A stretch of 64,000 bases of DNA from Candidatus Komeilibacteria bacterium RIFOXYD1_FULL_37_29 (lineage in GTDB: Bacteria > Patescibacteriota > Patescibacteriia > UBA1558 > GWA2-36-10), in assembly GCA_001818495.1 (NCBI GenBank), contig MHKS01000005.1, positions 12,288 to 76,287 on the forward strand. Reading direction: 5' to 3'. Under the pieces are notes generated by a model that searched no databases, was not told the origin of the DNA, and worked only from the letters and a program-made list of their open reading frames with translations. A program made the translations under genes and the position numbers. The first letter of the stretch is position 1; each line of letters starts with the position of its first letter. Positions 4,596 to 54,451 of this stretch are shown one piece after another.

Positions 4596-5336
4596 ATGTA
4601 CTTATATATTTACGACTCCTTTCTCAATGATAAAAAATACTCTGATCTTTTAATCAGTATTGAAAAAAGATTAACTGACCTTGGTATCAAAGGAAAAATT
4701 GCCCGCCTGTCCATTTTGAAAAATATGAAAGAGATGATAATGGACGGAGTCAAAGAGGGAGTACAAACTGTAGTGGCCATTGGCAACGCCCAAACTTTTG
4801 CCAAAGTCATCAATGTGGTGGCTGATTTAGATGTAGCATTGGGACTTATTCCGGTAGACAACAACAACCCCATTGCCAAAGTGTTGGGTATCCCTCCGAG
4901 AGTAATGGCCTGTGATGTCTTGGCTTCACGAATAATTAAAAAAATTGATTTGGGAAAAATAAATAATTATTATTTTGTAAATACTGCCCAGATAGAAAAC
5001 GGTGATGTCACCATCGAATACAAAGATTTTAAAATTTCACCCATTACTGAAAAAAGTAAAATTACCCTTTACAATTTCTCCAACAAATTTTCTAAATCAT
5101 CACCAGTCGACGGAATTTTAGAAGCCGTAATCACACCGATAAAATCCGGCCTGTTTGGTAAAAAAATGGTAGAACAAACTATTTTGCCCTTTACTAAGAT
5201 AAAAATTGGCAGTCGAGCAGAGGAGCAGGTGGCCATACTAACTGACGAACAAATCATCATGAAGACCCCGGCCGAGATTGTGGTGGTACCACAAAAACTA
5301 AAAGTAATTGTCGGTAGCGAAAGACATTTTGATTAA
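4596..5336 (+). CDS. diacylglycerol-kinase catalytic-domain-like protein (YegS/NAD-kinase fold) with a degenerate GGDGT motif
   Basis: The layout resembles DAGK_cat (..VVAIGNAQTFAKVIN.., LGLIPVDNNNPIAKVLGIP), but the GGDGT loop reads GNAQT. Confidence 0.45.
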   Translation: MYLYIYDSFLNDKKYSDLLISIEKRLTDLGIKGKIARLSILKNMKEMIMDGVKEGVQTVVAIGNAQTFAKVINVVADLDVALGLIPVDNNNPIAKVLGIPPRVMACDVLASRIIKKIDLGKINNYYFVNTAQIENGDVTIEYKDFKISPITEKSKITLYNFSNKFSKSSPVDGILEAVITPIKSGLFGKKMVEQTILPFTKIKIGSRAEEQVAILTDEQIIMKTPAEIVVVPQKLKVIVGSERHFD

Positions 5337-5346
5337 AGAAAACTAA

Positions 5347-5375
5347 CAAAAAACCCTATTTTATAGGGTTTTTTA
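5347..5375. terminator. bidirectional intrinsic terminator
   Basis: AAAAAACCCTAT-ttt-ATAGGGTTTTTT between convergent genes. Confidence 0.6.
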
Positions 5376-5409
5376 AATTTATTAAAAATAAGTGTATAAA
5401 TTATTTATT

Positions 5410-6129
5410 CTATTTTTTATCAACAATTTCTACCTCGTGTTTTTTTCGCCAGCCCAAAACTAGATACTGTTGAGCCACTGATAAGAGGGTGCTAAAAAAC
5501 CAATAAAAAGTTAAACCGGCTGGAAAACGCGAGCCAATAAAAATAGTTACAATGGGCATAATATAAGTCATCTGTGCACCCATACCAGCCATTCCACCGG
5601 CATTAGATTGTTTCTTACTCATTAACATCTTGGATTGCCAAAATTGTGCCGCACCAGCGAGCACTGCTAACCACCAGCTATTTTTTGCTAAATCTAGAAA
5701 CCCAAAGGCGATATGCTTTAATACTCCAGGATTATCTACAAAAGGATAAAGCGCCTGCATGGCATTGTCGTCAGTCAGGCCGTTGAAGAAAACTCTATAG
5801 ATAGCAAAAAGAAAAGGCAGTTGAATAAGCATGGGCATGCAAGAAGAAAATGGATTGATTCCTTTGCGCTTATAAAGAGCCATCAACTCCGGACCAAGTT
5901 GATCTTTGTTGTCTTTGTGTTTTTGTTTAAGTTCTTCTATTTCTGGTTGTAGAGTAGCTAATTCTTTTTGAGACTTAATGGCTTTTTTGGAAGGAATATA
6001 AAGAACTAATTTTATAATCACAGTGATAACAATAATAGCCACACCCAAATCGTGTCCGGGCAAAATATTATAAATATAAACTAGCAGGTTAAAAATCGGT
6101 TCGTAAAAGATTGTATTAAATATTCCCAT
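5410..6129 (-). CDS. yidC: membrane protein insertase YidC (short Gram-positive/CPR type)
   Basis: 239 aa multi-TM; position in the rpmH-rnpA-yidD-yidC block. Confidence 0.85.
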   Translation of the reverse strand: MGIFNTIFYEPIFNLLVYIYNILPGHDLGVAIIVITVIIKLVLYIPSKKAIKSQKELATLQPEIEELKQKHKDNKDQLGPELMALYKRKGINPFSSCMPMLIQLPFLFAIYRVFFNGLTDDNAMQALYPFVDNPGVLKHIAFGFLDLAKNSWWLAVLAGAAQFWQSKMLMSKKQSNAGGMAGMGAQMTYIMPIVTIFIGSRFPAGLTFYWFFSTLLSVAQQYLVLGWRKKHEVEIVDKK

Positions 6130-7122: not shown

Positions 7123-8508
7123 ATGGAAAATAATGACAAAATTTGGGAAAAAACTTTAGGAGAATTAGAGCTCTTAATTAGTAAGGCCAACTTTACCACT
7201 TGGTTTAAAAACACCTTTGTTGCTACTATAGAAAATAACGATATCACCGTGGGCGTACCAAATGCCTTTACTAAAGTTTGGCTAGAAAAAAAATATCATG
7301 ACCAAATTATAGCCGCCCTAGAAAATGTCTTGTCTAAAAATAATCTACAAATTATCTACAAGGTTATTACTAAGGATAGGTCTGCGAATATTAGCCAAGA
7401 AAATACAAAAAAAGTTAATATTAGTAACGGAAAAGAAACCGAAACAATCCAAACATCCACCGAAAACCGCCAGCCAACAGTGGCCCGCTTTGGCTTAAAT
7501 ACTCAATATGTTTTTGAAAGTTTTGTAGTTGGTCCGGGTAATGAATTGGCCCAGGCTGCTGCCCATGCTGCTGCCCAAAAACCAGGCCAAATATATAATC
7601 CGCTCTTTATTTATGGTGGTGTTGGTTTGGGCAAAACTCACTTAGTGCAGGCTGTTGGCAACTATATTTTAGCCAAAGATCCCACTAAAAAGGTAGTTTA
7701 TATTAATAGTGAAAAATTTACCAATGATTTTATTTTTGCTATTAAATCCGGTCAAACTGATAAATTCAAACAAACCTATCGTAATATTGATGTTTTACTA
7801 ATTGATGATATCCAGTTTATCGCTGGTAAAGAGCAAACCCAGGAAGAATTTTTCCATACTTTCAACGCTCTTCATCAAAACAATAAACAAATTGTTATTT
7901 CTTCTGATCGCCCACCCAAGGCCATTCCGGGTATAGAAAATCGATTAATTTCCCGTTTTGAGTGGGGGATGATTGCTGATATTTCCGCTCCCGATCTAGA
8001 AACCCGTATGGCTATCTTAGAAATTAAGGCGCAAGAAAAAAAATATAAACTTAATAAAGATATTATTCACTATGTAGCTGAAAATATCCAAAATAACATT
8101 CGCGAACTAGAGGGTGCTTTAAATAGAATTATTGCCTTTCATCAACTAAACAACACCACACCCACCCTAGATAGTGTTAAGGCTATTTTGGGTGGTCTAT
8201 CTGCCAATCATCGCCGGGCCGGATTAACCCCACGTAAACTTTTAGAATCCATCAGCGTCTTTTATGATATTAGTATGGAAAACTTGCTCGGTGCTAGCCG
8301 TAAAAAAGAGCTGGTGGTTCCTAGACAAATCGCCATGTTTTTAATGCGGGAAGAATTAAAGGCCTCTTATCCCAACATTGGTCAAGAAATTGGGGGCCGA
8401 GATCACACCACCGCCATGCACGCCTGTATTAAAGTTACTACCTTAATAGAAATGGACGAAAAAATAAAAAACGATATCTTAATATTACGACAAAAAATCT
8501 ATGAATAA
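7123..8508 (+). CDS. dnaA: chromosomal replication initiator DnaA
   Basis: AAA+ Walker A GGVGLGKTHL, box VII, and a C-terminal DNA-binding domain. Start moved to MENNDKIWEK because the DnaA boxes lie upstream of it. Confidence 0.95.
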   Translation: MENNDKIWEKTLGELELLISKANFTTWFKNTFVATIENNDITVGVPNAFTKVWLEKKYHDQIIAALENVLSKNNLQIIYKVITKDRSANISQENTKKVNISNGKETETIQTSTENRQPTVARFGLNTQYVFESFVVGPGNELAQAAAHAAAQKPGQIYNPLFIYGGVGLGKTHLVQAVGNYILAKDPTKKVVYINSEKFTNDFIFAIKSGQTDKFKQTYRNIDVLLIDDIQFIAGKEQTQEEFFHTFNALHQNNKQIVISSDRPPKAIPGIENRLISRFEWGMIADISAPDLETRMAILEIKAQEKKYKLNKDIIHYVAENIQNNIRELEGALNRIIAFHQLNNTTPTLDSVKAILGGLSANHRRAGLTPRKLLESISVFYDISMENLLGASRKKELVVPRQIAMFLMREELKASYPNIGQEIGGRDHTTAMHACIKVTTLIEMDEKIKNDILILRQKIYE

Positions 8509-8782
8509 GTTGTTTATAAATTTTTAATAAGTCTGTAGATAAAAAATTATAAATTGTTAACAAACCCCGGACTTATAAACAAAAAATGGACATTCAAAAA
8601 TCACTGGGGATTAAATGACACTTATAAACAAAATTATTCATAACTTACCCCCACATAAAATATAAATAAAAACATAAATTAACTAGAGTTTTTCTCAAAA
8701 AATTTCTCTTATCAACATACCCACAGGCTCTAATACTAATACTTTATTTATATTATAATAATAACTAGTAAATAATAATTAT
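8509..8782. other. candidate oriC / DNA unwinding region between dnaA and dnaN
   Basis: Strongly AT-rich 274-nt spacer with three copies of the box-like TTATAAACA and one TTATCAACA; position is conserved for oriC in many bacteria. Confidence 0.4.
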
Positions 8783-9883
8783 ATGAAAATCGTTTGCACG
8801 CAGGAAAATTTAAACAAAGGATTATCTCTGGTTTCTAATATTGCCAATAAGAGTTCTAATCTTCCTATTTTAAACAATGTTTTATTAAAAGCCGACAAAG
8901 AAGGATTAACTCTGATAACCACCGATCTAGAAATAGGTATTAAGGCTCTTGTGCGCAGCAAGATAGAGGAGCAAGGAGAATTTACCGTTGATGCTAAGCT
9001 ATTACACAATTTCGTTTCTTTCTTGCCCAAAGAAAATATCGAACTAAATTTACAAGAAGATAGTTTGGAAATAAAAAGTTCCAATCAAGAGACCTCTATT
9101 AAGGGTTTGGTGGCCGAAGATTTTCCTCTTATTCCAGACATGGAAAAAACCAATATGGTAGAATTGCCGGTGCAGGAATTTAAAAAAGGACTACACCAAG
9201 TTATTTTAGCGGCTTCTTTGGACACCTCTCGGATTGAGATAAATGCTGTAAATTTTGATTTTCAAAATAATAATTTAGTGTTGGCAGCCACCGACAGCTA
9301 TCGCCTGGCTGAAAAGAAATTAAAATTAGCCAATGGTCAAAAAACTAGTTTAATCATTCCTCTTAAAACCCTCCAGGAATTAAGTCGTATTTTAAACGAG
9401 CAAGCTGAAAAGAAATTAAAGATTTATTTTAATGATAATCAAATATTGTTTGAGTTTGACGGAGTAGAGTTGACCTCTCGAGTTATTGATGGAAAGTATC
9501 CAGACTATAATCAAATTATTCCCGCCCAATTTAAAACCGAAGCCAAGTGTGAAATTAATAAACTGGTTCCCGCTATAAAATCAGTGGCGTTATTTTGTAA
9601 ACAGGGTATCAACGATATTCGTTTGAGCTTAGACAGCAAGAAACAAAAAATAGTTATTGCCACCGCCTCTTCTCACACCGGCACTTCGGTAGCCAAGGTA
9701 GATGCTAAAATATCCGGTGAGGACAACGATATTGTTTTTAACTATCGCTATCTTTTGGATGGTTTGGCACAACTGGGCAGTAGTGAGGTTAATATAAAAA
9801 TGAACAACAACGCCTCTCCAGGATTATTACAGCCGGTCAATGATGATAAATATATTTATTTGGTCATGCCTATTAGGCAATAA
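8783..9883 (+). CDS. dnaN: DNA polymerase III beta sliding clamp
   Basis: 366 aa with three-domain clamp architecture, immediately after dnaA. Confidence 0.9.
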   Translation: MKIVCTQENLNKGLSLVSNIANKSSNLPILNNVLLKADKEGLTLITTDLEIGIKALVRSKIEEQGEFTVDAKLLHNFVSFLPKENIELNLQEDSLEIKSSNQETSIKGLVAEDFPLIPDMEKTNMVELPVQEFKKGLHQVILAASLDTSRIEINAVNFDFQNNNLVLAATDSYRLAEKKLKLANGQKTSLIIPLKTLQELSRILNEQAEKKLKIYFNDNQILFEFDGVELTSRVIDGKYPDYNQIIPAQFKTEAKCEINKLVPAIKSVALFCKQGINDIRLSLDSKKQKIVIATASSHTGTSVAKVDAKISGEDNDIVFNYRYLLDGLAQLGSSEVNIKMNNNASPGLLQPVNDDKYIYLVMPIRQ

Positions 9884-9904
9884 AAAGTCTAAAATAATCG
9901 CAAA

Positions 9905-9938
9905 GAAAAACAACTCGTCTTGGGGGGGGTTGTTTTTT
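9905..9938 (+). terminator. intrinsic terminator after dnaN
   Basis: AAAAACAAC-tcgtcttggggggg-GTTGTTTTTT. Confidence 0.5.
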
Positions 9939-10008
9939 AGTATTGACTTTGGCGCGTTGCCGTGTTAAGACTAGCCAAAAGTGTACCATAACAATTTAGG
10001 AGTAGAAT

Positions 10009-10851
10009 ATGCTAGATATACTAATGTTTTTAGTAGATTTGAGCTGGCATATTTTACAATATGTCTGGCAAGGGCTAGTGTGGTTTTTCCACCTGGAAGA
10101 ACGATTACTAATTTGGTTTGATGTTTGGGGTTGGTCAAACGCCTGGCAAATACCAATTATTTCTTTGGTTAATGCGGTGGTAATCGCTCTAGAGATTTTT
10201 GGCTATATTAATTTAGCTAAAATATTTAGAATTTTTAGAATCGTCAAATCTTTTTTTGGTCGTTTACTAGGTAGCCGACTACGCCGATTTTTCAAAAGAG
10301 TTATTCTCTTTATTAGAGAAAAGTTCTTTAGAAAAAAACCAAAAGATCAACCCTCTAAGGTTGCTAGACTACTAACCATTATTTCTCACGACAAGCCGAT
10401 TGGTTGTTTTGGTCTAGCCACCCTGACACTCATCCCCGAATGTCAAAAAGTTGCCTCCTTCATTTTTACTACTCAAAGAAAACGATTGGGACTTGGGGGC
10501 TACTTGTCTTTGTGTGCCGGTGGAACTACCCGTTTGACTTTGGTAGTTTATTTACCAATGGTTGTAGTCTGGTCAGTAATTGTCCTAGCTGTTAGCTGTC
10601 GGCTACTTAAGTGGTTAGTAGAAATTCGCTACGGATTTTTTAGCTGGCAACATCTTTTTGGTCAAGGCGTTTTGTTAATCAACCGTTTGAAGACAATATT
10701 TTTGTTTTCAATGCTAGCGATTTTTTTGCCCACTAGTTTTTTGTACCCAGTCGCTGGGTTATTGGTGTTTTGTCAGATCACCAAACTATTCATTGGTCGT
10801 CATTTTAGACAAAGACCACCAACAGTCACCTCCTCGGAGGAACAAGTTTAA
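10009..10851 (+). CDS. hypothetical multi-pass membrane protein (Arg/Phe/Trp-rich); GC-elevated
   Basis: An 843-nt ORF in about 42% GC DNA, followed by its own hairpin terminator; no family recognised. Confidence 0.5.
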   Translation: MLDILMFLVDLSWHILQYVWQGLVWFFHLEERLLIWFDVWGWSNAWQIPIISLVNAVVIALEIFGYINLAKIFRIFRIVKSFFGRLLGSRLRRFFKRVILFIREKFFRKKPKDQPSKVARLLTIISHDKPIGCFGLATLTLIPECQKVASFIFTTQRKRLGLGGYLSLCAGGTTRLTLVVYLPMVVVWSVIVLAVSCRLLKWLVEIRYGFFSWQHLFGQGVLLINRLKTIFLFSMLAIFLPTSFLYPVAGLLVFCQITKLFIGRHFRQRPPTVTSSEEQV

Positions 10852-10890
10852 CTGCGCTTTTTATCTTAGATAGGGGCGCAGTTTTCATTT
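10850..10890 (+). terminator. intrinsic terminator
   Basis: AACTGCGC-(18 nt)-GCGCAGTT followed by TTCATTTT. Confidence 0.55.
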
Positions 10891-10969
10891 TGATAACCCG
10901 CTTTACGTCACGTTTACTTGGTGGATAATGGGCTTTGCAATATTTTTTATTCTTTGTTATAATAGAAAT

Positions 10970-11062
10970 ACCTTTATTTAACTCTTGTCGAAGAGTTTTT
11001 GGAGGTAAAAACCTGTCTCATAGGACAGACCGGAAAACACTCTTGCGCGATTGGGGTGTTTT
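10970..11062 (+). ncRNA. candidate small structured RNA (unassigned family)
   Basis: Near-consensus promoter TTGCAA-17-TATAAT (10935-10963) with no ORF downstream on this strand. Three hairpins follow, two ending in U-runs (10979-11001 and 11035-11064). Confidence 0.25.
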
Positions 11063-11072
11063 TTGGTTATTT

Positions 11073-11098
11073 AAAAAATCCCGCTCGGCGGGATTTTT
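11073..11098. terminator. bidirectional terminator shared with the ferredoxin gene
   Basis: AAAAATCCCGC-tcg-GCGGGATTTTT. Confidence 0.6.
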
Positions 11099-11330
11099 AG
11101 TGGCTGATTCTAATAGTTGTTGTTGGACAGCTGGTGGCTATTTTTTGAAATTCCTCCAATTGGCTATCATTTATTTCTAGGACCCAGGCATTTCCTTCTT
11201 TCTTAGAGTTTTTCATTTGTACCAATCCATCGTCGCTATTGATGTCAAATATTTTTGGTAAGATATCAATACAGGTGCCACAGCCAATGCATTTACTTCG
11301 ATCTATATATATTTTATATTTTTTAGTCAT
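11097..11330 (-). CDS. 4Fe-4S ferredoxin
   Basis: 77 aa with CIGCGTC and a C-terminal CP cluster motif; overlaps the U32 gene by 8 nt. Confidence 0.75.
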   Translation of the reverse strand: MTKKYKIYIDRSKCIGCGTCIDILPKIFDINSDDGLVQMKNSKKEGNAWVLEINDSQLEEFQKIATSCPTTTIRISH

Positions 11331-12600
11331 AAATTTTTCTTGGTTTTATAATATAGAGGCCATCATTTTTTTTAACAGGTTTATCTACTGATATGGTAAT
11401 AGTTTGTCCAACCGGTGCTTCTGTGGTTTTTGATCCAGCGGCTAGGCGTAGAGATCTAACTTGTCCAAACAGCACGCCGGTGCTCGGCCCAGTAATAGAA
11501 TATTTGTCGTTTATTTTTATAGCTTGAGCATTGAGGAGTATCTCAGCCACTTTAATTTTGGGGAAATAATGTTGGACTGTGCCAGCAAAATATTTTTCTT
11601 CTGTGGCCTGACTATTTCCAGAAGCTGACCACTCATGGAGAGGCTTACCCAGATAATAGCCGTCGCTTAACCCGCGATTAAAAACTGTGCCCAACTTTTT
11701 TTCCCAGGCCAGAACCTTTTTTAAAGTATAAGTGTCAGAGTTAATGCTGTCTATAGCCTCTCGATAAGCTCTTACTACAGTAGCCACATATTCTGGCGAA
11801 CGACCTCGCCCTTCTATTTTAAGACTGCTGACTCCAGCGGCTAAAAAATCTTTTAAAAATCCAATAGCGCAGATGTCTTTGGGGCTCATGACAAATTCAT
11901 TATCCAAAACCATTTCTTTGTTGGTTTCTAGGTCGGTTACTCTGTAGCGGCGACGGCACATTTGACGACAAGCGCCACGATTGGCTGAAGAGTTCTCATT
12001 GTATAAACTCATCGAACAGCGGCCAGAAATACCAATGCACAGGGCGCCGTGGACAAAGGCTTCAATGGGAATTAAGTGGCCTGCGGGGTTAGTAATTTTT
12101 TGTTTGGTTATTTGCTTGGTAATTTCAGCAATCATTTTTAAGTTTAGCTCACGGGCCAAAACGATTTGATCAGCATATTGGCTAAAAAATTTTACGGCTT
12201 CAACATTGGAGACGGACAATTGGGTGGAAATATGAAGTGGCAGGCCAATCCGATGAGCATATTGGATAGCGGCCATATCAGAAACTATCACGGCGCTTAT
12301 TTTATTGACTTTGGCAGCATCAATTAAAGTACGCATCATTTTAAGATCAGTATCATAGAGCACTGTATTGACTGTCAAATAAGATTTTATTTTATGCTCT
12401 TGGCAAAGCTGGGCAATTTTTTTAAGATCAGCCAAATTAAAATTGGCTGCCGAAACAGAGCGCATGTTAATGTGGCCAACACCAAAGTACACTGCGTCAG
12501 CACCATTGTCTATCGCGGCCATTAGTGACTCATATGATCCGGCTGGAGCCAAGAGCTCCACTTGGTATTTTTTCTTTGGCATAATAGATATTTTTAGCAT
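11323..12600 (-). CDS. peptidase U32-family protein (TrhP/RlhA/UbiU-like Fe-S hydroxylase family); true start may be the Met at MPKKKYQVELLAPAG
   Basis: U32 signature EAFVHGALCIGISGRCSMS and the conserved N-terminal ELLAPAGS. Confidence 0.85.
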   Translation of the reverse strand: MLKISIMPKKKYQVELLAPAGSYESLMAAIDNGADAVYFGVGHINMRSVSAANFNLADLKKIAQLCQEHKIKSYLTVNTVLYDTDLKMMRTLIDAAKVNKISAVIVSDMAAIQYAHRIGLPLHISTQLSVSNVEAVKFFSQYADQIVLARELNLKMIAEITKQITKQKITNPAGHLIPIEAFVHGALCIGISGRCSMSLYNENSSANRGACRQMCRRRYRVTDLETNKEMVLDNEFVMSPKDICAIGFLKDFLAAGVSSLKIEGRGRSPEYVATVVRAYREAIDSINSDTYTLKKVLAWEKKLGTVFNRGLSDGYYLGKPLHEWSASGNSQATEEKYFAGTVQHYFPKIKVAEILLNAQAIKINDKYSITGPSTGVLFGQVRSLRLAAGSKTTEAPVGQTITISVDKPVKKNDGLYIIKPRKIYD

Positions 12601-12621
12601 ATATATTTTAACCCGTCCAGT

Positions 12622-12660
12622 AAAAAAAGAAAGCCCGCGCCCACACTAGGTGAACGCGGG
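12622..12660 (-). terminator. intrinsic terminator of the 12683-13519 gene (minus strand)
   Basis: On the minus strand CCCGCG-N15-CGCGGG is followed by CTTTCTTTTTTT. Confidence 0.6.
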
Positions 12661-12682
12661 TCGGGCCAAGGGCGTGATTGCC

Positions 12683-13519
12683 CTAGGATTGGTGAGTCGG
12701 GAGGAGCCAGTGTTTTCCCCGGCAAGCACCTTTCCATAGCCCTGCTATAACCAGGCATAGCAAAGTGATTAGTAACCCAGTGGCCACAAGAATGTTTATG
12801 GCCAAGGAAAGGGTCCATTGGCCGACTTGTCTAAGCAGTGGCCAGAAATATAAACGGCCGGTTGCCAGCAGGTGTTTGAGGCCCCTAGCAATTAGTAGTA
12901 GTAGCAACACGACCAAAGTCATCACGATGATGGAGACCGGATAAATTAGTGGAGTAAACAAGAAAATTAGTAGTGCCTGTTTAACCGAAAGGCTGGTAGT
13001 CAAGTTGGCTAGACCAGATAAAACAATAAGGGTGTAGAAAAACACCATCGTTGAACCAAAACCATAAGAAAAGGTATTTGGCACTTCATCATCATAAGTA
13101 CTAATCAGATAGTGACGTTTGGTGGCATCGAAATCAGAGGAAAAATAGGCCGATATGAAAACAGAAATTACGATGCTACTAATCACAAAAGTGTGTAAAT
13201 CGTAGCTAGACGAAAAGGCCGTGATAAACAGCGCTTGTAGAACAGCGCGTAGATAGCTGTGCCAGCGAGTTTTGTCCCAAAATGGTTGGAGGGCCAACGC
13301 GTTAGTTTTGACCCAGACGAAGATAAGCACCAATAAGCTGTTGGCTATGGGCCAAACTAACCAAGCTGGCGTGATCGGTGGGACAAGCCAAGGGGCCTGT
13401 TGGGGCAGAACTAAATTCCAAGGATGGAAAATAGCTACCAAGATTGAGAAAAGAAGAGAGACGAAAAAAGTCGTCGCACACCAGCGCCACATGATCATAT
13501 CCCTGATCGTGTAATTCAT
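12683..13519 (-). CDS. hypothetical polytopic membrane protein; strongly GC-shifted (about 48% against a 30-35% background)
   Basis: 278 aa with at least seven hydrophobic helices; no recognised family; has its own terminator. Confidence 0.55.
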   Translation of the reverse strand: MNYTIRDMIMWRWCATTFFVSLLFSILVAIFHPWNLVLPQQAPWLVPPITPAWLVWPIANSLLVLIFVWVKTNALALQPFWDKTRWHSYLRAVLQALFITAFSSSYDLHTFVISSIVISVFISAYFSSDFDATKRHYLISTYDDEVPNTFSYGFGSTMVFFYTLIVLSGLANLTTSLSVKQALLIFLFTPLIYPVSIIVMTLVVLLLLLIARGLKHLLATGRLYFWPLLRQVGQWTLSLAINILVATGLLITLLCLVIAGLWKGACRGKHWLLPTHQS

Positions 13520-13667
13520 TTTACTGCTCCTTGCGGTTTATATGTTATGTAATGAAACATCCTTGTTCAGAGTAATCTGACTATTTAAGGTTTACGACCC
13601 AATATACTATGATTAGCCAAATTTGTCAATTGAAAAAGCCGGGGTATTTTGATAGAATTAAGACATT

Positions 13668-14240
13668 ATGATTGCTTATCTAAAGGGGACAGTTATTAAA
13701 AAGCTTGATAAATCCATAATTCTTATAATTGGGGGTATTGGTTATGAGGTTTTTTTAAGTCGGCAAAATTTGGATAATATCAAAATAGATGAGGAAAGAG
13801 ATTTTTTTGTGCATTCTTATATCAAAGAAGATTTGTTTGATTTATATGGCTTTCCTTCTTGGGAGGAATTGAATTTTTTTAAAAAACTAATTGCTGTATC
13901 AGGTGTTGGTCCCAAGAGTGCTCTAAACGTTTTGGCGCTAGCCACAGTAGATGAATTAAAGCGAGCCATTACTAGCGGGGATTCTTCGCTTTTGCAACAG
14001 GTTTCGGGCATTGGTAAAAAAACCGCCGAGCGTTTGGTAGTAGAATTAAAAGAAAAATTTATCAGGGATTTATCAGAGGCCGGTTTAAAAATAGATGGAA
14101 ATAATCAAGTGATTGAAGCGTTGGTTTCTTTGGGTTATAAACAAATAGAAGCTCAAGAAACTATTAAGCATTTGCCAGTCGAAGAGAACGATTTGGCCAC
14201 CAAGATTAAACAAGCGCTCCAGTTAATTAATAAAAAATGA
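13668..14240 (+). CDS. ruvA: Holliday junction branch migration protein RuvA
   Basis: 190 aa with an OB-fold N-terminus, HhH pairs (GVGPKSAL, GIGKKTAE) and a C-terminal domain III. Confidence 0.9.
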   Translation: MIAYLKGTVIKKLDKSIILIIGGIGYEVFLSRQNLDNIKIDEERDFFVHSYIKEDLFDLYGFPSWEELNFFKKLIAVSGVGPKSALNVLALATVDELKRAITSGDSSLLQQVSGIGKKTAERLVVELKEKFIRDLSEAGLKIDGNNQVIEALVSLGYKQIEAQETIKHLPVEENDLATKIKQALQLINKK

Positions 14241-15250
14241 AATTAGTTTTAGATTATAAGCAGTATGATGATTTTTTAAAAGCCAGATTTGTTTCTGGCA
14301 ATTTTTTGCAGTCTAGTCTTTGGGAGGATTTTTTAAGTCGGCAAGGTTTAAAATTTTGGCGGGCGACGGTTTTAGAACAAGAAAAAAATATTGCCACCGG
14401 TCTTTTTTATGAAAAGAAATTACCTTTTAGTCGGGCCTATCTTTATGCTCCCAAGGGGCCGATTGTTGACTTGGGTATTTCTCAGACCGAGCAAAGGGAA
14501 GCACTAGAATTAATATTATCCAAAGCCAGAGATATTAGTATAGACACTAAAAAGCAAGAAGAGATATTTTTTAAGTTGGAATTAGAAAGCAGTAGCGGGC
14601 TTTTGAAAAATATAAAAAAATCAAAAGATATTCAGCCTCGCGACACCTGGGTTTTGGATTTGGATAAAGAGCAAAAAGATTTACTGGCCGTCATGCATCC
14701 AAAGACTAGATATAATATTGCCCTGGCTAATAAAAAAGGTGTCAAGGTCAGATTTTCTAAAAAAGAGGCAGACCTAAAATATTTTTTTCGTTTAAATAAA
14801 AAAACAGCTAGCCGCAATCAAATAACCACCCATCCGGATGATTATTATCAAAAATTATTTCAAGTACTAGTGGATAAAGATGCGGGAGAATTGGCTCTAG
14901 CGGAAATTGACGGGCAAATAGTCGCGGCCAATATATTGATTTATTTTGGCCAGTCGGCCACTTATTTACACGGCGCTTCTGATTATGCTTTTAGACAATA
15001 TATGGCCCCACAACTTTTGCAGTGGGAAAGTATCAAGCGGGCCCATAGTTTGGGAAAAAAGATTTATGATTTTTGGGGCATTGCACCCCAAGATGGTAGC
15101 AAGCCCAACTGGGAAGGCTTTAGTCGTTTTAAAAAATCTTTTGGCGGACGAGCCATTTATTCTCCGGGAGCCCATGATTTGATTTATGATTCTTTTTGGT
15201 ATACTCTCTATAATCTAAACACCAAAGTAAAATCTTTATTAAAAAAATAA
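14237..15250 (+). CDS. FemAB-family peptidoglycan interpeptide-bridge aminoacyltransferase
   Basis: 337 aa with the FemAB/GNAT-like fold; overlaps ruvA (ATGA) and sits beside a Mur ligase. Confidence 0.75.
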   Translation: MKLVLDYKQYDDFLKARFVSGNFLQSSLWEDFLSRQGLKFWRATVLEQEKNIATGLFYEKKLPFSRAYLYAPKGPIVDLGISQTEQREALELILSKARDISIDTKKQEEIFFKLELESSSGLLKNIKKSKDIQPRDTWVLDLDKEQKDLLAVMHPKTRYNIALANKKGVKVRFSKKEADLKYFFRLNKKTASRNQITTHPDDYYQKLFQVLVDKDAGELALAEIDGQIVAANILIYFGQSATYLHGASDYAFRQYMAPQLLQWESIKRAHSLGKKIYDFWGIAPQDGSKPNWEGFSRFKKSFGGRAIYSPGAHDLIYDSFWYTLYNLNTKVKSLLKK

Positions 15251-15257
15251 TATAGCC

Positions 15258-15986
15258 ATGATCAAAAAAGTCCTTATTTCAGCTGCTGGACGCGGCAGTC
15301 GGATGCTAGATTTATCCAAAGATAAGCCCAAGCATTTAATCGAAGCCAACGGTCGGCCGTTTTTGTATTATGTACTTAGTAATTTACAGGCTGCTGGTTT
15401 TGAAGAAATGATTATGGTAGTGGGTTACAAAAAAGAATTCATGGAGAATTTTTTGAAAACATATAAAAATGATTTTAAAATTACCTTAGTTAATCAGTTT
15501 GATATCTTAGGGGAAGATCGTTATGGTACGGCTTGCCCCCTAGAGTGTGCCAAAGATTTGTTAAAGGGAGAAAGTTTTTTGGCAATCTATGGTGACAATT
15601 TGTATGCCGTGGGTGATTTGAAAAGATTTAATATTGAAGACGACTATTCATATATAGCCGGCCTGCCCCATAATCATCCAGAAAATTATGGCGTTTTAGC
15701 AGTTGATAAAAATGGTTTTCTGGAAAGAGTGGTTGAAAAGCCAACTCATCCGATTGGTAACCTTATTAATACTGGTCTTTATAAATTTACGCCAGAAGTT
15801 TTTAAATATTTAGACAAGATTGATATTTCTCCACGTGGTGAATATGAGCTGACCGATGTGATAAATCTTTTGGCGTCTCAAGGAAAGGTCAAGGCCCTAG
15901 ATCTTCAAGATATTTGGTTGGATTTTGGTCGGCCGGAAGACATCAAAAAAGTAGAAGATTATTTAAACAGTCAGCCAAGTAAATAA
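15258..15986 (+). CDS. sugar-1-phosphate nucleotidyltransferase (GlmU N-terminal-like, no acetyltransferase domain)
   Basis: The N-terminal LISAAGRGSRM matches the (L)AAGKGTRM motif of NTP-transferase enzymes. Confidence 0.7.
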   Translation: MIKKVLISAAGRGSRMLDLSKDKPKHLIEANGRPFLYYVLSNLQAAGFEEMIMVVGYKKEFMENFLKTYKNDFKITLVNQFDILGEDRYGTACPLECAKDLLKGESFLAIYGDNLYAVGDLKRFNIEDDYSYIAGLPHNHPENYGVLAVDKNGFLERVVEKPTHPIGNLINTGLYKFTPEVFKYLDKIDISPRGEYELTDVINLLASQGKVKALDLQDIWLDFGRPEDIKKVEDYLNSQPSK

Positions 15987-25040: not shown

Positions 25041-25054
25041 AGATATTTTTAGCA

Positions 25055-25085
25055 AAAAAGCCCCCCAAAAGGGGGCTTTTTCTAT
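25055..25085 (+). terminator. intrinsic terminator after rpoC
   Basis: AAAAAAGCCCCC-caaaa-GGGGGCTTTTTT. Confidence 0.7.
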
Positions 25086-25152
25086 TTTGTTAGGGATTTA
25101 TTTTTCTAGATAAATATGATAAAATATAGATAGATTATTATTTTTTAAACTA

Positions 25153-29157: not shown

Positions 29158-29187
29158 AAGACTGGTCAATGACCAGTCTTTTTTTCT
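29158..29187. terminator. bidirectional terminator between recA and the convergent Cys-rich gene
   Basis: AAGACTGGTC-aat-GACCAGTCTT followed by TTTTTC. Confidence 0.6.
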
Positions 29188-29552
29188 TTGGGGGTGTTCT
29201 TGTTTTGTAGTATAAAATGTGCCAAGGCTTTGGCCAGTTCAAAGCGGATGCTATTACAGTTGTCTCCATCACCACAGGCCAAAGAATGTCTGCCCATACC
29301 AACGCCAGATAAACATGTACCGTCGTCTTTGGCAAGCATTGTAGCTAACCGAAGGGCTTGTTTATGAGTTTTGACTCGGTAGCGACACGCATCGGGACTG
29401 TATCCAGAATTTTTACATTTTTTGCCCTTACATTTGTGGTCAGGCAAGTAGCTTTTCCCTGGTTCGAGTTTTAGCCATTTTTGGCAGTCGGAGCAAAGAC
29501 CCTCCTCGGTCAAAAATGTCTTTTCGGCCAGCTCTAGCATGCTTCTATTCAT
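29166..29552 (-). CDS. hypothetical Cys-rich protein (possible zinc-ribbon / HNH-like); GC-elevated
   Basis: 128 aa with about ten Cys, including CSDC..DHKCKGKKCKNSG..CRYRVKTHK. About 45% GC; the only long ORF in this interval. Confidence 0.4.
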   Translation of the reverse strand: MNRSMLELAEKTFLTEEGLCSDCQKWLKLEPGKSYLPDHKCKGKKCKNSGYSPDACRYRVKTHKQALRLATMLAKDDGTCLSGVGMGRHSLACGDGDNCNSIRFELAKALAHFILQNKNTPKEKKTGH

Positions 29553-54169: not shown

Positions 54170-54171
54170 TT

Positions 54172-54205
54172 AAAAAAACGCCCTAGCTATTGGGGCGTTT
54201 TTTTA
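54172..54205 (+). terminator. intrinsic terminator after PBP1A
   Basis: AAAAAAACGCCC-tagctatt-GGGGCGTTTTTTT. Confidence 0.7.
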
Positions 54206-54451
54206 ATAGCCTTCGTTAGCGTGAATGTGGTTGGCTTTTTCGGCGCTGAGCTCATCCTCATTTATTTTTTCATTAAGCGGATTAGCGGAGTTTAGAAAAA
54301 CTAAGAGCAGGCCCATAATTAAAGTAGTGATTGATAGCCACAGTGGCATAAAAATTTCCCAAATATTAAAAAAGGCCAAACAGGCTAAAATGACCATAAA
54401 AATACCCATAGTAACGTTAAAAACGGTTGGACAGTAGCAATATTTTCCCAT
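54203..54451 (-). CDS. hypothetical small two-TM membrane protein
   Basis: 82 aa with two hydrophobic helices; weak evidence. Confidence 0.35.
   Translation of the reverse strand: MGKYCYCPTVFNVTMGIFMVILACLAFFNIWEIFMPLWLSITTLIMGLLLVFLNSANPLNEKINEDELSAEKANHIHANEGY

Follow-up and report, generated by a model that had tools for sequence, protein, structure and literature searches.

Four independent transcription units in the origin-proximal neighbourhood between dnaN and ruvA of a Komeilibacteria clade

Gene content and base composition of the interval

The 3.6-kb block described here belongs to a 64-kb stretch of DNA (the window) from a groundwater member of the Komeilibacteria (CPR) and is located between dnaN upstream and ruvA/femAB downstream. 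The gene content and the coordinates of the original prediction were confirmed, as was the observation that the borders carry no tRNA, integrase or transposase. Intrinsic terminators, which had been proposed for each unit, were indeed found for memA (10852-10891), fdx (a bidirectional hairpin at 11080-11092) and memB (12660-12634). The features are the following.

10009-10851, + strand: memA, membrane protein of 280 aa
10852-10891, + strand: intrinsic terminator of memA, CTGCGC...GCGCAG followed by a T-run (read from the sequence)
10935-10963, + strand: sRNA promoter, -35 TTGCAA, 17-nt spacer, extended -10 TGTTATAAT (scan 10/12 with TG)
10970-11068, + strand: structured sRNA of about 100 nt (fold, covariation and covariance-model matches)
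11070-11096, - strand: intrinsic terminator of U32-fdx, starting right after the fdx stop codon (read from the sequence)
11097-11330, - strand: fdx, ferredoxin of 77 aa
11323-12600, - strand: U32; the start used in the orthologs is 12582, which gives 419 aa (11323-12582)
12590-12619, - strand: candidate U32-fdx promoter, T(G/A)GAC(G/A), 17 nt, TAAAAAT (conserved block)
12634-12660, - strand: strong memB terminator, 11-bp stem with 8 GC pairs, then a T-run (terminator scan)
12683-13519, - strand: memB, membrane protein of 278 aa with 7 hydrophobic segments
13601-13629, - strand: memB promoter, TTGACA, 17 nt, TATATT (promoter scan 11/12)
13630-13658, + strand: ruvA promoter, back to back with the memB promoter

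The block consists of four independent transcription units and is no single module. U32 and fdx would form an operon of two translationally coupled genes, served by a separate promoter and terminator, the sRNA would be transcribed from a near-consensus promoter directly 3' of dnaN, and memA and memB, each with a promoter and a terminator of its own, would flank this core in two variable slots.

The block had been singled out because of a raised GC content, and this shift is real, but its size was overstated, and it is mostly that of memB alone. The block has 41.1% GC, whereas the window averages 36.4%; no other interval of this size in the 64 kb is as GC-rich, yet the excess over the mean is only about 2.4 sd. 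The earlier estimate for U32 (about 42%) agrees with the measured 41.2%, whereas those for memA (42%, measured 38.3%), memB (48-50%, measured 45.5%) and ruvA/femAB (about 30%, measured 34.7% and 36.6%) have to be corrected; fdx has 33.8%. At third codon positions memB is the sole outlier (GC3 0.504 vs 0.321 +/- 0.040 in 50 other ORFs, z=+4.6), and the z values of memA (0.65), fdx (0.43) and U32 (1.2) are ordinary. The memB interval is also the most deviant 840-bp interval in tetranucleotide composition (z about 4), and memB is the most deviant gene in codon usage among those of at least 200 aa. From this we conclude that essentially the codon-level composition of memB accounts for almost all of the GC shift. 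Normal variance among membrane-protein genes, which had been considered as an explanation, does not account for memB, since the remaining polytopic membrane genes of the window are GC-poor (0.28-0.34).

Such a composition could indicate that the 3.6-kb block as a whole arrived recently as an island of foreign origin, inserted between dnaN and ruvA, as the original prediction of a laterally acquired module implied; in support of this, the block is the GC-richest 3.6-kb interval in 64 kb, and GC3, codon usage and tetranucleotides of memB are aberrant. We regard this as very improbable. The composition of U32-fdx is normal, neither mobility genes nor flanking repeats were found at the block, nor were any viral homologs. 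Furthermore, in 9 of 10 lineages memB has a higher GC3 than the genes around it (0.41-0.63 vs 0.19-0.40) despite saturated synonymous divergence between the lineages, with a dS of already 0.66 to the closest relative, so that the GC content is no relic of a recent transfer. The high GC3 of memB is therefore a maintained property of the gene and not a donor signature, and it results from a force still at work, either selection or biased repair, rather than from recent horizontal transfer. Relaxed constraint alone is not the cause, since fdx also evolves fast (37-60% identity) with normal GC3.

The sRNA and the U32-ferredoxin operon

The sRNA, which had been proposed as a candidate, is placed on firmer ground by its own promoter, a conserved fold and covariation. 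The three-stem fold comprises P1 around hairpin P1a, then hairpin P2, a long 3' hairpin P3 and a U-tract (MFE -39 kcal/mol, z=-5.7). Mean column identity is 87% in species in which the flanking proteins are only 30-60% identical, and the promoter segment is nearly invariant in 8 species. In all loci of the clade, the covariance model places the sRNA directly 3' of dnaN and in the same orientation, and all 14 metagenome contigs that match the hairpin have it in the same context. In an alignment fitted to the model, 17 of the 31 pairs are changed on both sides, and 98% of the cells are paired, compared to 41-59% in slid controls; P3 barely varies. An independent MAFFT/RNAalifold run recovered P1, P1a and P3. 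No Rfam family matched at E<0.1. The sRNA is thus previously unclassified and conserved across the clade. Its P3 loop, UGCGCGAU(U), is invariant, which suggests that it may be a binding site for a specific partner.

The fdx product is a single-cluster ferredoxin (CxxCxxC...CP, with Cys at 14, 17, 20 and 68) that matches Pfam Fer4_15 with 53 bits (cut-off 22.4). The beginning of fdx and the end of U32 share 8 nt (ATGACTAA), which indicates translational coupling. U32 matches Pfam Peptidase_U32 with 230 bits and carries the signature EAFVHGALCIGISGRCSMS at residue 174 and Cys at 182, 189, 205 and 209; the U32 C-terminal domain was not detectable in this protein with Pfam/NCBIfam. It is strongly constrained, with a dN/dS of 0.025 and 78-87% identity among clade members. 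The candidate promoter, a block downstream of the memB terminator that is conserved in the window and in L001, L013, L043, L044 and L051, stops some 8 nt short of the ATG, so that the mRNA may be leaderless-like. At the other end, the terminator hairpin CCCGC-N3-GCGGG (11080-11092) lies between runs of A and T and can act on both strands.

The U32 proteins UbiU/V, TrhP and RlhA carry out O2-independent, prephenate-dependent hydroxylation, and their 4Fe-4S clusters have been proposed as electron donors to a "yet unidentified electron acceptor" (PMC10990095; PMC6599085); TrhP binds a [4Fe-4S] cluster (bioRxiv 10.1101/2021.04.01.438105). TrhP (180 bits) and UbiU (173 bits) are the NCBIfam models closest to the U32 protein described here, but its scores lie under both equivalog cut-offs. 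By analogy with TrhP, RlhA and UbiU/V we infer that it is a putative O2-independent (prephenate-type) hydroxylase, for which RNA (tRNA U34 or rRNA C2501) would be a more likely substrate than quinone. U32, with a [4Fe-4S] cluster, would hydroxylate without O2, and the dedicated ferredoxin would carry the electrons withdrawn from the substrate. It is uncertain where prephenate would come from, since aromatic amino-acid biosynthesis is usually absent from CPR bacteria.

Two fast-evolving orphan membrane proteins

As had been predicted, the two membrane proteins are unrelated to each other (hhalign probability 0.25%) and resemble no known family: neither memA (Pfam, NCBIfam and PADLOC) nor memB (Pfam and NCBIfam) had a match. 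The basic memA protein (net charge +21) belongs to a family of only 7 clusters in 5.8 billion proteins, all "hypothetical" and from Patescibacteria. These are usually 190-230 aa long, and the copy in the window alone has a C-terminal extension of about 75 aa. For memB, only 10 representatives were found among 1.84 billion representative proteins. The AlphaFold models are of low confidence (pLDDT 58 for memA, 48 for memB), so that no fold-based inference is possible.

Both genes are also outliers in predicted nucleic-acid structure. Based on predicted MFEs with 16-20 shuffles each, the z-scores against synonymous shuffles are -4.4 for memA and -4.7 for memB in the window, and -3.0 to -7.2 for memA/memB genes in total (n=8) compared to -1.9 to +1.2 in controls (n=14; p=3e-6); with dinucleotide shuffles as the reference, mean values are -3.3 and -3.5 vs -0.22 in 31 controls. 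No control gene has a comparable excess. Among memB orthologs, GC3 excess and z-score are uncorrelated (rho=-0.17, n=8). We interpret the short local hairpins, which would be set via synonymous sites, as a probable result of selection at the nucleic-acid level. In the simplest version, the heavily structured mRNAs would restrain or stabilise expression of the proteins. However, the excess is present on both strands, and a DNA-level or mutational origin (template switching) is therefore as compatible with it as selection on the mRNA.

Orphan status without a confident fold, together with this structure on both strands, could also mean that memA and memB are chance long ORFs that overlie non-coding elements rich in GC and hairpins, either structured RNAs or palindromic selfish DNA, with the membrane-like sequence being a by-product of T-rich second codon positions. 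Stop codons are few in GC-rich DNA of an AT-rich genome, and similarly structured GC-rich DNA in L016 has no long ORFs. This is nevertheless hardly credible in view of the substitution patterns. dN/dS is 0.13-0.26 in the annotated frames (memA 0.134, memB 0.255), compared to 0.75-1.9 (memA) and 0.9-1.4 (memB) in shifted sense frames, and the sole low antisense frame is the one that shares wobble positions. Third codon positions hold most substitutions (20/12/37 in memA and 33/17/55 in memB), and the only indel in memB relative to its closest relative is one in-frame codon. Protein motifs are kept among orthologs of about 30% identity whose DNA is not alignable; in memB these are an N-terminal MNYxxRNxxLWRWC...WLxWPxTNTLFVL and a C-terminal W-LFPP. 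memA and memB each come with a promoter and a terminator. The 5' arm of the memA terminator, CTGCG, is kept in L014, L044 and L049, and every memB ortholog has a GC-rich hairpin with a T-tract at the equivalent position, and the stem sequence differs from one ortholog to the next. Compared with the relative of 81% identity, the ruvA-memB intergenic region (89%) is better conserved than the memB coding sequence (78%). memA and memB are real proteins under purifying selection.

Both diverge about 10 times faster than their neighbours (dN/dS 0.039 for RuvA, 0 for the DnaN tail): where U32 is 78-87% identical, memB is 23-41% and memA 30-45% identical. The term "fast-evolving accessory" used in the original prediction is therefore apt for memA and memB, with their rate and their repeated loss, truncation or replacement, but not for U32-fdx and the sRNA, which are conserved.

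Synteny and variable slots in relatives

Synteny was compared at about 30 related loci. The order dnaA-dnaN-[slot 1]-fdx-U32-[slot 2]-ruvA-femAB-NTP-transferase-Mur ligase-rpoB is found in L013-L017, L020, L021 and L041, where DnaN is 62-88% identical, and of the 10 genome relatives with shared ruvA synteny, 8 have U32-fdx here. In L044/L045 and L049, memA, fdx, U32 and memB all lie between dnaN and ruvA in unchanged order and orientation, with 81-84% identity to the window for U32 and 31-45% for the membrane proteins; such conserved synteny of all four genes speaks against a lateral module. In the family alignment, memA orthologs from the same slot in L014, L016, L044, L049 and L058 have 34-41% identity. 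All memB homologs from the 1.84 billion representative proteins with a readable contig adjoin ruvA, and they are located upstream of U32 wherever the contig is long enough, except in L048, where U32-fdx is absent and memB lies between ruvA and the sRNA. INDEPENDENCE of units is seen in loci with U32-fdx without memB (L014, L015, L020) or without memA (L013, L015, L047), and with the sRNA without either U32-fdx or memB (L019). In L019, ruvA comes almost directly after dnaN, as might be expected of a site before the arrival of an island, but a diverged copy of the sRNA still lies between them, and a deletion of U32-fdx therefore fits better than a never-occupied site. From these results we conclude that dnaN-[memA]-sRNA-fdx-U32-[memB]-ruvA is the ancestral order in this Komeilibacteria clade.

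The slots themselves vary in size from about 100 bp to 2.8 kb, and several close relatives lack memA or memB (leaving a slot of about 100 bp) or have a truncated copy or another gene instead. Besides memB or nothing, slot 2 contains a STAS-domain protein (L041), memB with a retron-type RT and two small TM ORFs (L049), or non-homologous multi-TM ORFs with a GC3 of 0.61-0.74, above that of memB (L016, L017, L018), which indicates that gene replacement, possibly by transfer, occurs in this slot; slot 1 of L016 has about 2 kb of additional GC-rich non-coding DNA. Both slots could thus be recombination or integration hotspots, in which accessory genes, some of them foreign, are swapped repeatedly, so that the GC-rich ORFs of slot 2 including memB would be successive imports, with their GC content raised by frequent recombination (GC-biased gene conversion) or by GC-richer donors. 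Although the variable content is in line with this, we consider it rather unlikely. memA and memB are restricted to this clade and these slots and their divergence is star-like, as in the neighbours; for these two families, vertical descent with loss is thus a better fit than repeated import, and the searches turned up no donor lineage and no mobile-element homolog.

Taken together, the block is probably a clade-specific, vertically inherited origin-proximal neighbourhood of four independent transcription units. memA and memB are dispensable, as sister lineages have lost, truncated or replaced them, and this pattern would be typical of envelope proteins at an interface with a host, phage or the environment.

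Setting and base composition of the dnaN-ruvA interval

The block between dnaN and ruvA, which adjoins the replication origin of this CPR bacterium, consists of a conserved U32-ferredoxin operon, an unclassified conserved small RNA (sRNA) and two clade-specific orphan membrane genes located in variable slots. One of the orphans, memB, shows a maintained anomaly in the GC content of third codon positions (GC3), and both show an excess of hairpins in their coding sequences. The features of the region are the following.

yidC, yidD, rnpA and rpmH, minus strand: precede dnaA
7015-7033: two tandem perfect DnaA boxes (TTATCCACA), directly upstream of dnaA
7033-8508: dnaA
8783-9883: dnaN, followed by the block (9950-13560)
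10009-10851, plus strand: memA, orphan membrane-protein gene (280 aa)
10935-10963: near-consensus promoter of the sRNA (TTGCAA, 17 nt, TGTTATAAT)
10970-11068, plus strand: sRNA
11097-11330, minus strand: fdx, ferredoxin gene
11323-12582, minus strand: U32, gene of a U32-family Fe-S protein
12583-12625, minus strand: promoter-like block of U32-fdx (T(G/A)GAC(G/A), 17 nt, TAAAAAT), conserved at the orthologous positions, downstream of the memB terminator
12683-13519, minus strand: memB, orphan seven-segment membrane-protein gene (278 aa)
3' of the block: ruvA, a FemAB-type gene, a nucleotidyltransferase gene, a Mur ligase gene and rpoB/rpoC
3246 and 60837: the tRNAs nearest to the block

The two DnaA boxes and the minimum of the cumulative GC skew, which turns at about 8-9 kb of the window, mark the replication origin region, and the block with its sRNA lies within about 2-6 kb of it. 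We could confirm the gene inventory, coordinates and strands of the block as originally predicted, and also that its borders are free of tRNAs, integrases and transposases.

The GC shift on which the original prediction was built does exist, the block having 41.1% GC compared to a window mean of 36.4% and being the GC-highest among all windows of equal size in the 64 kb, but it is modest (about 2.4 sd). The sampled values had been too high for memA (38.3%, not 42%) and memB (45.5%, not 48-50%), and the roughly 30% assigned to ruvA and femAB was too low (34.7% and 36.6%). The sole GC3 outlier in the block is memB, with 0.504 compared to 0.321 ± 0.040 in 50 other ORFs (z=+4.6), and memA (z=0.65), fdx (0.43) and U32 (1.2) all remain within 1.3 sd. 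In tetranucleotide content, the memB interval deviates more than any other 840-bp window of the 64 kb, and among genes of at least 200 aa it is again memB in which synonymous codon usage deviates most (TTC 47% vs 9%, ATC 43% vs 16%). Since the remaining polytopic membrane genes of the window are GC-poor (0.28-0.34), this anomaly is not general to membrane genes.

The memB orthologs have a GC3 of 0.41-0.63 compared to 0.19-0.40 in their neighbours in nine of ten lineages, the exception being L051 (L numbers denote loci or contigs of relatives). The synonymous divergence of memB is 0.66 to the nearest relative and saturated among the other orthologs, so that the elevated GC3 must be continuously maintained. 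Relaxed constraint alone does not explain it, since the ferredoxin also diverges fast (37-60% identity) and its GC3 is ordinary.

Only one further ORF of the window has a clearly raised GC3 (29166-29552, minus strand, 128 aa; GC3 0.445, GC 44.7%); it has no Pfam match and, unlike memA and memB, no excess of RNA structure (z=+0.5 and +1.0). Across the window, several 4-bp palindromes are avoided (observed/expected: ACGT 32/198, TGCA 72/198, TCGA 76/198, GTAC 82/198) and others are over-represented (GGCC 206/63, CCGG 131/63), which suggests restriction-modification pressure or a sequence-specific process. Six GGCC sites with a spacing of about 20 nt are found at the 3' end of memB (12782-12880); as a memB-specific feature this enrichment is only partly specific, since the GGCC excess is genome-wide (206 observed, 63 expected).

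The orphan membrane genes and their slots

In a relative represented by the Logan contigs L001 and L002 (nucleotide identity about 81%), ruvA, memB and U32 are collinear, and the memB frame is intact with a single one-codon indel and a dN/dS of 0.255, compared to 0.025 in the N-terminal part of U32 and 0.039 in RuvA. For memA, a dN/dS of 0.134 was obtained over 110 codons of a partial ortholog (L067), the DnaN tail on the same contig having a dN of 0. Shifted sense frames of both genes gave omega values of 0.75-1.9, and substitutions fall mostly at third codon positions; the intergenic regions flanking memB are 89-90% identical in nucleotides compared to 78% for its coding sequence. Frame, codon positions and dN/dS together indicate that memA and memB are expressed protein genes evolving about ten times faster than their neighbours, and on this comparative evidence we take both to be real genes.

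As predicted, neither gene belongs to a recognised family, both being without Pfam, NCBIfam and PADLOC matches, and they are unrelated to each other. Eleven memB and six memA family members gave only isolated chance-level matches against HMM families. The AlphaFold models are helical and of low confidence, memA reaching a pLDDT of 58 and a pTM of 0.24 from a single sequence and memB 48 and 0.23 from a two-sequence alignment. An exhaustive HMMER profile search of 1.84 billion representative proteins returned only ten representatives of the memB family, with conservation of the N-terminal half (MNYxxRNxxLWRWC..KPWGW..WLxWPxTNTLFVL..FVW..T..PFW) and of W-LFPP at the C-terminus. All memB homologs with a readable contig are divergent beside ruvA, and those on long enough contigs lie about 100 nt upstream of U32-fdx, with the exception of L048. 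The memA family comprises seven clusters among 5.8 billion sequences, all of them annotated as "hypothetical protein" of Patescibacteria and, where context is available, always located between dnaN and the ferredoxin gene. No homologs of either gene were found outside the clade or on viral contigs.

Like fast-evolving ORFan envelope proteins in host-associated bacteria, among them CPR/Patescibacteria, memA and memB are clade-limited, polytopic and without recognisable domains, and they diverge rapidly under weak purifying selection with patchy loss. They differ from these in that each is found strictly in its own origin-proximal slot, that the third positions of memB are persistently GC-rich and that both carry a synonymous-site hairpin excess. 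To our knowledge, neither GC3 enrichment nor hairpin excess has been described as a property of ORFan envelope genes.

We retrieved 30 genome loci via DnaN and scanned them with the window proteins. The order dnaA-dnaN-[slot 1]-fdx-U32-[slot 2]-ruvA-femAB-NTP-transferase-Mur ligase-rpoB, in which slot 1 is the position of memA and slot 2 that of memB, is kept in eight of the ten relatives sharing ruvA synteny (DnaN 62-88% identical). Six of the GTDB representative MAGs (L019, L020, L021, L023, L024, L041) are labelled "uncultured Gammaproteobacteria bacterium", yet they clearly belong to this Patescibacteria clade by DnaA, DnaN and RpoB identity and by synteny, so that the label is likely erroneous.

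The length of slot 1 varies between 117 bp and 2.8 kb, and memA occupies it in some of the lineages. In L014, L015 and L020, slot 2 is empty (about 100 bp); it is occupied by memB in the window and L013 and by a STAS-domain ORF in L041, and it contains multi-TM ORFs on the strand of memB in three further loci (L016:7331-8842, L017:13111-13611, L018:11579-12277). The latter have a GC3 of 0.61-0.74 in loci of 37-42% GC, and they showed no homology to memB by HMM search and hhalign and no Pfam or PADLOC match. In genomes in which U32 is 78-87%, RuvA 69-81% and FemAB 66-76% identical, memB is only 23-41% and memA 30-45% identical.

Several loci show reduced states of the block. A 46-codon remnant of memA with an intact N-terminus is found at L061:1897-2037, and the closest relative carries a truncated 114-codon copy (L067:392-736), for which a sequencing error is possible because the contig has 1x coverage. 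U32-fdx is missing in L048, in which memB abuts the sRNA, and in L019 a diverged sRNA alone is left between dnaN and ruvA. These states are signs of loss rather than gain.

Two slots hold additional DNA. At L049:7543-9501, slot 2 contains, between memB and U32, an inserted reverse transcriptase (RT) of 320 aa whose best match is of the retron type (PADLOC RT_II-A, 110 bits, E=5e-32). Two small TM-rich ORFs (80 and 60 aa) come before it, and their RBS/start regions duplicate the memB start (TCTAGGAGGAAATATG...). Neither TR/VR repeats nor group II intron RNA were detected in this region, which looks like a defence-type insertion in a variable slot. Targeting by a DGR was considered for the hypervariability of memB and rejected, the window having no RT and the L049 RT being retron-type without TR/VR repeats. 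In slot 1 of L016 (DnaN 87% identical), about 2 kb of extra GC-rich DNA (46-49%) without long ORFs surround a memA homolog (L016:2990-3830 and 4680-5520). For this DNA, extremely strong folding is predicted (z=-5.6 and -6.6 compared to dinucleotide shuffles). It yielded neither an Rfam match nor repeats, and may represent a large structured RNA or else a decayed element.

The original prediction had suggested a laterally acquired or fast-evolving accessory module. The fast-evolving accessory alternative holds for memA and memB alone. Regarding lateral acquisition, which is not supported, all four genes are kept in order and orientation in L044/L045 and L049, and such conserved four-gene synteny is the very outcome that the prediction itself had named as refuting it. 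Like classical genomic islands, the block contains a gene of atypical composition and differs in presence and absence among relatives. Unlike in such islands, however, the atypical composition and codon usage are those of memB alone and not of the whole block; the borders carry no integrase, transposase, tRNA or direct repeats and are formed by dnaN and ruvA; no donor is apparent; and orthologs of all four genes are located at the same site in relatives, with the composition kept over long divergence. Reading GC-rich DNA with orphan genes as a foreign island is therefore attractive but wrong in this case, and a distinguishing rule can be derived: a compositional anomaly that lasts in syntenic orthologs past synonymous saturation cannot be a relic of transfer.

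The small RNA and the U32-ferredoxin operon

No other sequence of the block is as conserved as that within the 245-nt spacer between memA and fdx. The sRNA encoded there has about 100 nt and folds into three stems (P1 with P1a inside it, P2 and P3; MFE -39 kcal/mol, z=-5.7). Its column identity is 87% over eight species, between which memA and the ferredoxin reach only 30-60% protein identity. A covariance model placed it directly 3' of dnaN and on the dnaN strand in all loci of the clade; the copies of L017-L021 and L041 are weaker, with mainly the 3' hairpin and its invariant UGCGCGAU(U) loop retained. A metagenome scan for this hairpin returned 14 contigs, all with the same context. In an alignment of 18 sequences, which was fitted to the model and in which P3 is nearly invariant, both sides changed in 17 of 31 pairs compared to 2-6 in slid controls, and 98% of the cells were paired compared to 41-59%; none of 500 shuffles reached the observed values. 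An independent MAFFT/RNAalifold analysis again gave P1, P1a and P3, and in the first two of these it showed compensatory changes. The original proposal of an sRNA candidate is thus supported by a conserved promoter, the fold and compensatory changes.

At gathering level, the only Rfam matches in the window are four tRNAs, and the best sub-threshold match of the sRNA is rsmX (RF02144, 23.9 bits compared to a gathering threshold of 56, E=0.16). It lacks the repeated GGA loops by which Rsm-type RNAs are defined, and it has a fixed site 3' of dnaN and the invariant UGCGCGAU loop. It resembles free-standing sRNAs with a Rho-independent terminator in its length of about 100 nt, its own sigma-70-like promoter, its terminal hairpin with U-tract and its intergenic position. 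An identity with SRP RNA, 6S RNA or another known RNA finds no Rfam support. Control of the promoter by DnaA was likewise rejected, the single 8-of-9 box (10920-10928) not being kept in relatives, as was a small ORF behind an SD-like GGAGGU, which has no suitably spaced start codon and covaries away in L062. Weak matches of the sRNA model elsewhere in the window (54089-54211, plus strand; 25050-25141, minus strand; E=0.05-0.1) are probably unrelated terminator hairpins. Our search of the literature on structured RNAs of Patescibacteria found nothing relevant. Judged by conservation and covariation, we regard the sRNA as real, unclassified and clade-specific.

The U32 protein matches Peptidase_U32 (PF01136) over residues 89-320 with 230.2 bits (cut-off 22.4), which places it in the family. 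The signature E-x-F-x2-G-[SA]-[LIVM]-C-x4-G-x-C-x-[LIVM]-S is present (residue 174, EAFVHGALCIGISGRCSMS), and four cysteines cluster at 182, 189, 205 and 209. The signature Glu and two Cys are essential in TrhP and RlhA (E162, C170 and C177 in TrhP; PMC6599085), and the E-x-F-x2-G-A-L-C-x6-C spacing of U32 equals that of these essential residues. The pair Cys 205 and Cys 209 could complete a 4Fe-4S site. With 419 aa the protein is close in length to YrrO (TrhP2) and TrhP (YegQ). It comes closest to the TrhP and UbiU models but stays well under their cut-offs, with 180.1 of 534 bits for the TrhP equivalog (NF011996; best stretch only the N-terminal ~215 residues) and 173.1 of 440 bits for UbiU (NF047963), and is thus placed in the U32 family but in neither subfamily. 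A C-terminal U32 domain was not detected, and a PDB sequence search gave nothing at E<=1e-3. No second U32 gene and no SCP2 (UbiT) gene is adjacent; in contrast to UbiU/UbiV, the adjacent partner gene encodes a ferredoxin.

This ferredoxin of 77 aa matches Fer4_15 (53.1 bits, cut-off 22.4) and Fer4_13 (44.9 bits, cut-off 24.5) and shows a CxxCxxC...CP motif (Cys 14, 17, 20 and 68, with a Pro after Cys 68). It resembles single-cluster ferredoxins in motif, size and the location of its gene directly downstream of the presumed partner enzyme, and differs from them in that this partner belongs to the U32 family instead of being a P450 or comparable enzyme, and in its fast evolution (37-60% identity where U32 is 64-82% identical). 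The fdx start lies 8 nt ahead of the U32 stop (ATGACTAA), which indicates translational coupling of both genes; L043, L047, L049 and L051 have the same overlap. U32 is thereby coupled in expression to a dedicated ferredoxin, unlike the arrangement in E. coli. The conserved promoter-like block stops about 8 nt short of the ATG, and the gap contains no Shine-Dalgarno sequence, which suggests a leaderless-like U32 mRNA.

U32 proteins are linked to O2-independent, prephenate-dependent hydroxylation, and their 4Fe-4S clusters were proposed to relay electrons to a "yet unidentified electron acceptor" (PMC10990095). By analogy, the co-translated ferredoxin would fit this role. The ferredoxin YfhL has reportedly been implicated in ho5U synthesis, in work of Lauhon from 2019. 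We infer that RNA is the more likely substrate of U32, because CPR bacteria are expected to be without quinones; this host presumably lacks them, and possibly also prephenate synthesis. A search of the literature on U32 proteins and ferredoxins of CPR bacteria found nothing relevant.

Local hairpins in the memA and memB coding sequences

Compared to dinucleotide shuffles, both orphan genes fold more strongly than expected, with z-scores of -7.6 for memB and -6.5 for memA according to the fold tool, and of -3.9 and -5.3, respectively, according to our own implementation, in which 16 other window genes ranged from -2.4 to +2.0. The orthologs behave alike, with z averaging -3.3 in the memB set (n=9) and -3.5 in the memA set (n=6) compared to -0.22 (sd 1.1, n=31) in controls (Mann-Whitney p ~1e-4). 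When synonymous codons were shuffled, which holds protein sequence and codon usage constant, memA and memB gave z-scores from -3.0 to -7.2 (n=8) and controls from -1.9 to +1.2 (n=14; p=3e-6). The excess is local (80-nt windows), distributed along both genes and mostly present on both strands, and no long repeats or palindromic elements were found behind it, which points to many short hairpins. GC3 excess does not predict the structure z-score, the two being uncorrelated across memB orthologs. The hairpins may result from selection on mRNA structure, from a DNA-level process or, as a mutational by-product, from e.g. template switching.

Sites resembling terminators, i.e. a hairpin with a T-run, are fourfold enriched in the surrounding region (8500-15500; 25 compared to 5.7 ± 2.5 in shuffles), and within memB they occur on the sense strand at 13475, 13248, 13232, 13046 and 12869.

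A joint reading of these results, to which we give a low probability as a whole, would be that memA and memB are coding genes under a second constraint at the nucleic-acid level, that the neighbouring RNA of about 100 nt represents a new class of dnaN-locus RNA and that the U32-coupled ferredoxin is the natural candidate for the electron acceptor of U32 hydroxylases. Under such a constraint, synonymous sites may build dense local hairpins and in memB may also be kept GC-rich, conserved over orthologs of about 30% identity. The hairpins could act as built-in throttles or stabilisers of the expression of potentially toxic membrane proteins, but alternatively a hairpin-directed DNA process (template switching, recombination) could act on them and itself drive the hypervariability of the two slots.

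With the claim of a lateral module deflated, the sRNA, the coupling of U32 to its ferredoxin and the hairpin signal remain as concrete leads. The operon of a U32 gene with its own ferredoxin is a concrete candidate for the sought electron acceptor of U32 hydroxylases (PMC10990095). In Komeilibacteria, a CPR lineage with almost no experimental study, the block defines two families of uncharacterised membrane proteins and a structured, unclassified sRNA. The synonymous-site hairpin excess, carried by precisely the two genes that evolve fast, is a clean and reproducible signal, which could bear on the control of envelope-protein expression or on diversification in reduced genomes.
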